64,000 nt of DNA, from assembly GCF_003334765.1 (NCBI RefSeq), contig NZ_QOWT01000002.1; one strand, written 5' to 3'. Source of the DNA: Escherichia coli (GTDB lineage: Bacteria; Pseudomonadota; Gammaproteobacteria; Enterobacterales; Enterobacteriaceae). Below are positions 58,191 to 58,970 of this stretch, in pieces (positions within the stretch are counted from its first letter, which is position 1; every line of letters begins with the position of its first letter). The notes below the pieces were generated by a model, which saw only the letters and a program-made list of their open reading frames with translations, did not search any database and was not told where the DNA came from. A program made the translations under genes and the position numbers.

Positions 58191-58970
58191 CTACACCGTA
58201 ATTAATTTCACCCGTGTCTTCTGCAATGCCAGTTTATCCACCTCTGACACAGCATCATCTGTAATAATAATGTCAATTTTTTCGATTGGCAGTACCTGAT
58301 TAAAACCGCGACGGTTAAATTTCGATGAATCGAGAACGGCAATCACTTTATTAGCGGCGGTGACCATTGCACCGCTAATCGAATAACCTTCATTAAAGGT
58401 CGTAATACCATTAACCGCATCAATACCATCAGCACCGACAAACATTAAATCGGCATTAATATCCTGCAATGAACGCTCGGCAATGGAACCATGCATCGAG
58501 CGCGTTTTATGGCGGACCGTGCCACCACAGACGACCAGAGTAATGTCTTTATTTTCGGAAAGGGCAAACGCTGCCGGGAGACTGTTGGTAATCACCGTGA
58601 TATTTTTAGCGGTCATTAATCCTTCGGCGATAAGCATTGTGGTACTTCCGCTGTCGAGAATAACGGTCATCCCTTCATGGATCATTTTGACTGCCGCCTG
58701 CGCTATTCTGTTTTTTGGCGCGCTGGCGAGCTGAAATCGCTCTTTAAACCCGACTTCCTGGGTCTCGGTTTCACTATTACCGGACATTATTTTCGCCGCA
58801 CCGCCATGAAAGCGCGTAACCACGCCTTTTTGTTCGAGAAAGCGCAAATCGGCACGGATTGTCGCTTCCGAGGCAGCAAATACTCCCGCCAGATCCTGAA
58901 CAAGCACGGTTCCCTGTTCATTCACTAATTGGATGATCTTATTCCTTCGCTCGAATGAATTCATCGTCAT
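58191..58970 (-). CDS. gatR: DeoR-family repressor of the galactitol operon, GatR (intact)
   Basis: 259-aa uninterrupted ORF; N-terminal HTH (RRNKIIQLVNEQGTVLVQDLAGVFAASEATIRADL) and DeoR C-terminal sugar-binding domain. Confidence 0.9.
   Translation of the reverse strand: MTMNSFERRNKIIQLVNEQGTVLVQDLAGVFAASEATIRADLRFLEQKGVVTRFHGGAAKIMSGNSETETQEVGFKERFQLASAPKNRIAQAAVKMIHEGMTVILDSGSTTMLIAEGLMTAKNITVITNSLPAAFALSENKDITLVVCGGTVRHKTRSMHGSIAERSLQDINADLMFVGADGIDAVNGITTFNEGYSISGAMVTAANKVIAVLDSSKFNRRGFNQVLPIEKIDIIITDDAVSEVDKLALQKTRVKLITV

Follow-up and report, generated by a model that had tools for sequence, protein, structure and literature searches.

The gatR gene of a wild-type Escherichia coli isolate, EC3132, was reportedly described by Nobelmann and Lengeler in 1996. 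In the reference genome of K-12 MG1655, the annotation gives gatR (b4498) as a pseudogene in two pieces, 299 and 475 nt long, with a 1258-bp IS3E between them. Several papers ascribe the constitutive gat expression of K-12 to this insertion (citing Nobelmann and Lengeler 1996); one passage of Sousa et al. (2017; PMC5850726) names the K-12 element IS1, whereas the genome annotation and other papers say IS3E. In that study, the gatR of E. coli HS, amplified with primers located in yegS and gatD, was swapped for the K-12 pseudogene, which made the gat operon regulated again, and constitutive mutants later arose in mice through de novo IS insertions in the restored gatR. The same work documents that the gat locus is under selection in the gut and reports that galactitol use varies among natural isolates (PMC5850726). 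In a 2026 preprint, CRISPRi silencing of an intact gatR shifted mouse-gut fitness in two clinical strains, LF82 and CFT073, with no signal in MG1655 (bioRxiv 10.64898/2026.01.05.697630). A sequence-only reading of the E. coli DNA described here had contrasted it with an IS-disrupted gatR and constitutive gat expression in K-12; the former is what the MG1655 annotation contains, and the latter agrees with this annotation and with the papers tying the gatR insertion to constitutive expression.

The DNA analyzed, hereafter the window, is a stretch of 64,000 nt from contig NZ_QOWT01000002.1. Its gatR lies at 58191..58970 on the minus strand and appears in the ORF list as a single uninterrupted frame of 259 codons (780 nt including the stop), at exactly the coordinates given by the sequence-only reading. 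The frame opens with ATG ACG ATG AAT (MTMNSFERR...) and thus offers two closely spaced start codons. RefSeq places the start at the second ATG (58964), which yields the 257-aa protein WP_001295426.1 of strains H3, 14EC001, and HS, and both the 257- and the 259-aa forms are found in public databases. Because the sole Shine-Dalgarno-like motif, a GGG, lies 9 nt before the second ATG and only 3 nt before the first, the 257-aa protein is probably the likelier product, a choice that leaves the main finding unaffected.

The assignment to the DeoR family, also proposed from the letters alone, was supported by the presence of both expected Pfam domains: an HTH_DeoR domain (PF08220) at residues 8-60 (E-value 2.9e-16) and a DeoRC domain (PF00455) at residues 85-238 (E-value 4.1e-51), the latter covering positions 5-159 of the 160 of the model. 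An N-terminal helix-turn-helix, a C-terminal DeoRC, and a length of 257 or 259 aa, in a family whose members are about 250-260 aa long, are those of a DeoR/GlpR regulator. Orthology with GatR is given by sequence identity together with the position of the gene, the last of the cluster, between gatD and yegS and on the same strand as the gat genes, and the names attached to the exact protein sequence in databases include "DeoR family galactitol utilization operon repressor." The NCBIfam library contains no GatR-specific model; the best matches in it were AgaR (E-value 3e-69, 233 bits) and SrlR (E-value 4e-67, 226 bits). Both identities were rejected, as these scores do not reach the curated equivalog cut-offs (260 and 350 bits, respectively), and GatR is therefore a paralogue that belongs to neither group.

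All seven gat genes run on the minus strand, arranged as gatY-gatZ-gatA-gatB-gatC-gatD-gatR, with the convergent yegS (plus strand) after them, and K-12, 14EC001, H3, and HS share this arrangement. The placement of gatR "upstream of gatDCBAZY" in the sequence-only reading thus holds in plus-strand coordinates only; by transcription, gatR comes last in the cluster and lies 99 bp beyond gatD on its 3' side. The ORF list gives full-length genes for gatD (galactitol-1-phosphate 5-dehydrogenase, 346 aa; 59070..60110), gatC (PTS galactitol EIIC, 451 aa; 60158..61513), gatB (PTS EIIB, 94 aa; 61517-61801), gatA (PTS EIIA, 150 aa; 61832-62284), and gatZ (tagatose-bisphosphate aldolase subunit, 420 aa; 62294..63556), all on the minus strand. 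Only the 3' part of gatY is included, as an ORF fragment at 63585..64000 on the same strand, the rest of the gene, its promoter, and any operators for GatR lying past the window end. GatD is identical to its HS counterpart at 344 of 346 positions, the gatB and gatA products are the same RefSeq proteins as in HS, and the exact GatD, GatB, and GatA alleles are each found on at least 1000 contigs, as is the exact GatZ allele. On the other side of gatR, the interval between its stop codon and that of yegS (58110..58190) is occupied by a REP-like GC-rich palindrome, which folds at −33.3 kcal/mol (z = −4.96; none of 200 shuffled sequences was equally stable) and is likely to serve as a 3'-end stabilizer or terminator for both yegS and gatR.

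The 99-bp spacer between gatD and gatR (58971..59069, minus strand) was studied by alignment, folding, and promoter scanning. Compared with HS and K-12, it differs at 1 of 105 alignment columns, position 59045, where the gene strand carries an A instead of the C of the two other strains. This substitution falls within a hairpin located just 3' of the gatD stop codon (approximately 59037-59062), which is not followed by a T tract, and breaks one pair of its 9-bp GC stem, so that the predicted stability is −16.3 kcal/mol here and −21.1 kcal/mol in HS; the weaker hairpin might change read-through into gatR. A consensus scan of the gatR flanks detected no sigma-70 promoter or terminator at threshold in this spacer. 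Below that threshold, a weak promoter-like pair could be read by eye, TTCACC (59021-59016) and TACACT (58998-58993), separated by 17 nt and matching at 8 of 12 positions. The gene may thus be transcribed by read-through from gatD or from a weak promoter of its own.

How this gene relates to the K-12 allele was established by aligning the two regions, as the sequence-only reading had proposed: the K-12 copy is interrupted in the reference, and that of the window is not. The window copy aligned from end to end without gaps or frameshift, both to complete E. coli genomes and to the K-12 fragments joined after removal of IS3E, which bears out the earlier claim that no insertion sequence is present. 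At the K-12 junction, a GTC is duplicated (3 bp) at both ends of IS3E; when mapped with the help of the K-12 annotation, this site corresponds to window positions 58666..58668, the first K-12 fragment ending at 58666, and the insertion directly follows codon 99 in the frame of 257 aa. In agreement with this location, BLAST alignments of K-12-type genomes break at query position 303. In the window, the GTC target at 58666-58668 is empty, and the K-12-type IS3E allele is thus not the one present. Outside the insertion, the two genes differ at 12 of 774 nt; all 12 differences are synonymous and none is non-synonymous, so that the window GatR is identical at 257 of 257 residues to the protein that K-12 would encode without the IS and one of the two copies of the 3-bp duplication. 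Because every difference from K-12 is synonymous, this comparison shows purifying selection on gatR within E. coli. Moreover, the pattern suggests that the IS3E insertion in K-12 is recent.

The distribution of the two alleles was surveyed in 5426 complete E. coli genomes, among which 5110 had some match to gatR. At least 80% of the gene was found in one place in up to 4757 of the 5426, a figure that is an upper bound because the search joins pieces separated by no more than 890 bp and therefore counts IS1-interrupted copies, such as that of C43(DE3), as one piece. The K-12-type junction between IS3E and gatR, searched with a 120-bp probe, was present in 344 of the 5426 genomes, and the junction-positive genomes listed include laboratory strains; these 344 make up almost all of the 353 genomes in which the gatR match was split or partial. 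The exact GatR protein is found on at least 1000 contigs. An intact gatR is thus the norm of the species and K-12 the exception, which reverses the framing of the sequence-only reading. The contrast between an intact gatR and its disruption in K-12 goes back to the literature of 1996, and the intact form is the commonest allele of the species. In the laboratory strain C43(DE3) (NZ_CP011938.1, 2067410..2068965), gatR contains an IS1A, an insertion independent of the K-12 IS3E that agrees with reports of gatR as an IS target.

The window GatR is identical at all 257 positions to that of HS (WP_001295426.1), the allele that restored regulation in K-12, and we strongly infer from this identity that the window allele encodes an active repressor. 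Taken together, these comparisons indicate that the window gatR is very probably an ordinary, functional wild-type allele encoding a DeoR/GlpR-family repressor of gatYZABCD. In such a scheme, the N-terminal DeoR helix-turn-helix would bind putative operators at the gatY promoter, and the C-terminal DeoRC domain would act as a sugar-phosphate sensor. When galactitol is absent, GatR would keep the gat operon off; once galactitol has entered through the GatABC PTS, which phosphorylates it, the repression would be lifted by an effector, likely a phosphorylated intermediate of the pathway by analogy with what is usual in the DeoR family. On this reading, the constitutive expression of K-12 results from a recent insertion of IS3E into an otherwise identical gene. 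The statement of the sequence-only reading that this strain probably retains repressible galactitol catabolism is sound on this basis, GatR being the tested HS allele and gatD, C, B, A, and Z being full length. However, an intact repressor does not by itself guarantee a Gat-positive, inducible phenotype, because natural isolates vary in their use of galactitol.

One alternative is that gatR is intact yet the galactitol phenotype is not the standard one, as a change in GatC or in the promoter region could make the strain Gat-negative, poorly inducible, or partly derepressed. GatC is identical to that of HS at 450 of 451 positions, the difference being T116M (window position 61167), and this position is also the only base that differs from strain H3, which is otherwise nearly identical, over the 10 kb from 53995 to 64000. 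The exact M116 allele is rare, being found on 28 contigs, as compared with a minimum of 1000 for every other Gat protein, and T116 otherwise hardly varies across 15 cluster members. If harmful, T116M would reduce uptake and hence induction, since without uptake there is no inducer; in addition, selection in the gut is documented for the gat locus, and natural isolates differ in their use of galactitol. On the other hand, replacing threonine by methionine is not a drastic change for a membrane protein. M116 was moreover found in several different strain backgrounds, some with and some without a ParDE insertion or a P2-like prophage, and each time with a full-length operon; this is what a tolerated polymorphism would be expected to show and suggests that T116M is tolerated.

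The promoter part of this alternative was examined outside the window. The gatY promoter lies past position 64000 and was read from the draft contig L006 (GCA_012425435.1), one of the contigs with the M116 allele, which is 100% identical to window positions 53000..64000 (11 kb compared); complete gatY and the fbaB-gatY spacer were then compared among L006, H3, HS, and K-12. The L006 spacer differs from that of HS at 1 nt (TTTTCAT[G]TTG), and a consensus scan of the gatY promoter region returned no promoter at threshold. The gatY promoter core lies between the two arms of an inverted pair, TGTCGTTT/AAACGACA, and the L006 substitution sits 3 nt from the TGTCGTTT arm, a proximity that could be taken to favor an altered regulation. 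However, 16 of 100 shuffled sequences also reached two matches, so that the TGTCGTTT motif is statistically indistinguishable from chance; we keep it as a candidate operator only, and no experimentally mapped GatR operator was found in the literature searched. Furthermore, each of the strains compared has a promoter-region SNP of its own, H3, K-12, and 14EC001 all carrying private differences in the fbaB-gatY spacer. All things considered, a non-standard galactitol phenotype seems improbable. A more specific version, in which T116M, possibly with the promoter-region SNP of this lineage, is an adaptive substitution that reduces or modifies galactitol uptake or induction in the presence of an intact repressor, is in our view very doubtful; if true, T116M would be a natural counterpart of the gat-negative or gat-modulating mutations that sweep through populations in mouse-gut evolution experiments. 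Finally, no observation was found in favor of the gatR frame being open by chance, or of its product being defective and the strain constitutive like K-12, and this reading is hardly conceivable, given a protein identical to the functionally validated HS allele, 12 differences from K-12 that are all synonymous, and two complete domains with strong E-values.

Some of the strains that share the GatC allele carry a ParDE toxin-antitoxin pair between yegQ and yegP (L007 16821..17117 and L009 16821..17370), which is absent from the window. Another sharer, L010, has a complete P2-like prophage (L010 15293..21150) at the 3' end of the cyaR small RNA gene. In the window, where cyaR is located at 56240..56325 (Rfam, 100.7 bits), this 3'-end site (from 56311 onward) is empty; the P2 remnant PR-X of about 611 bp (ogrK, yegZ) present beside cyaR in K-12 is missing, and the alignments of the two flanks overlap by about 18 bp (related coordinates for the comparison of this site are L001 3184..3812). 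Farther to the left, between yegL and mdtA (42075..42880), the window contains three tandem SIB RNA/Ibs type I toxin-antitoxin units (Rfam, 141-150 bits each), annotated in H3 as ibsA and two Ibs-family toxins. The copy number of SIB units varies, K-12 presumably having two (sibA and sibB) at this locus.

The relatedness of the window to H3 is mosaic. From 23094 to 64000, the two are 99.7-100% identical; in the left part (1..23000), the colanic-acid cluster is 94-97.5% identical, the O-antigen end is not collinear, and the left 25 kb is at most 98.7% identical to any complete genome. Such a mosaic is typical of recombination around the O-antigen locus. In this left part, a GalE-type UDP-glucose 4-epimerase gene (613..1701, minus strand; 425 bits) is the first after a JUMPstart element (1670..1708). 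An additional ORF of 331 aa of the NAD-dependent sugar-epimerase family (3078..4073, minus strand), with weak NCBIfam matches, lies between galF and wcaM, where H3 has none; it may be gne-like.

In practical terms, an ordinary functional gatR means that this strain should be treated as normally regulated for gat, and that expectations drawn from K-12, such as constitutive gat expression or the gatC pseudogene of MG1655, should not be carried over. The gat locus is well studied in selection during gut colonization, and a regulated starting state would be a useful background for such experiments.

Among described systems, that of HS is the closest: its gatR occupies the same place after gatD with the same flanks, and differs from that of the window by a few synonymous and intergenic SNPs, none of them at the protein level. 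K-12 MG1655 differs not only in gatR but also in gatC, which is a pseudogene there, whereas the gatC of the window is full length. More distant relatives are AgaR and SrlR (GutR), DeoR-family proteins that repress the PTS operons for N-acetylgalactosamine and glucitol, respectively. Like GatR, they govern PTS operons for sugars or sugar alcohols whose products enter glycolysis as tagatose or fructose phosphates, and they share with it the same two-domain architecture and length, but the operons they control are different.
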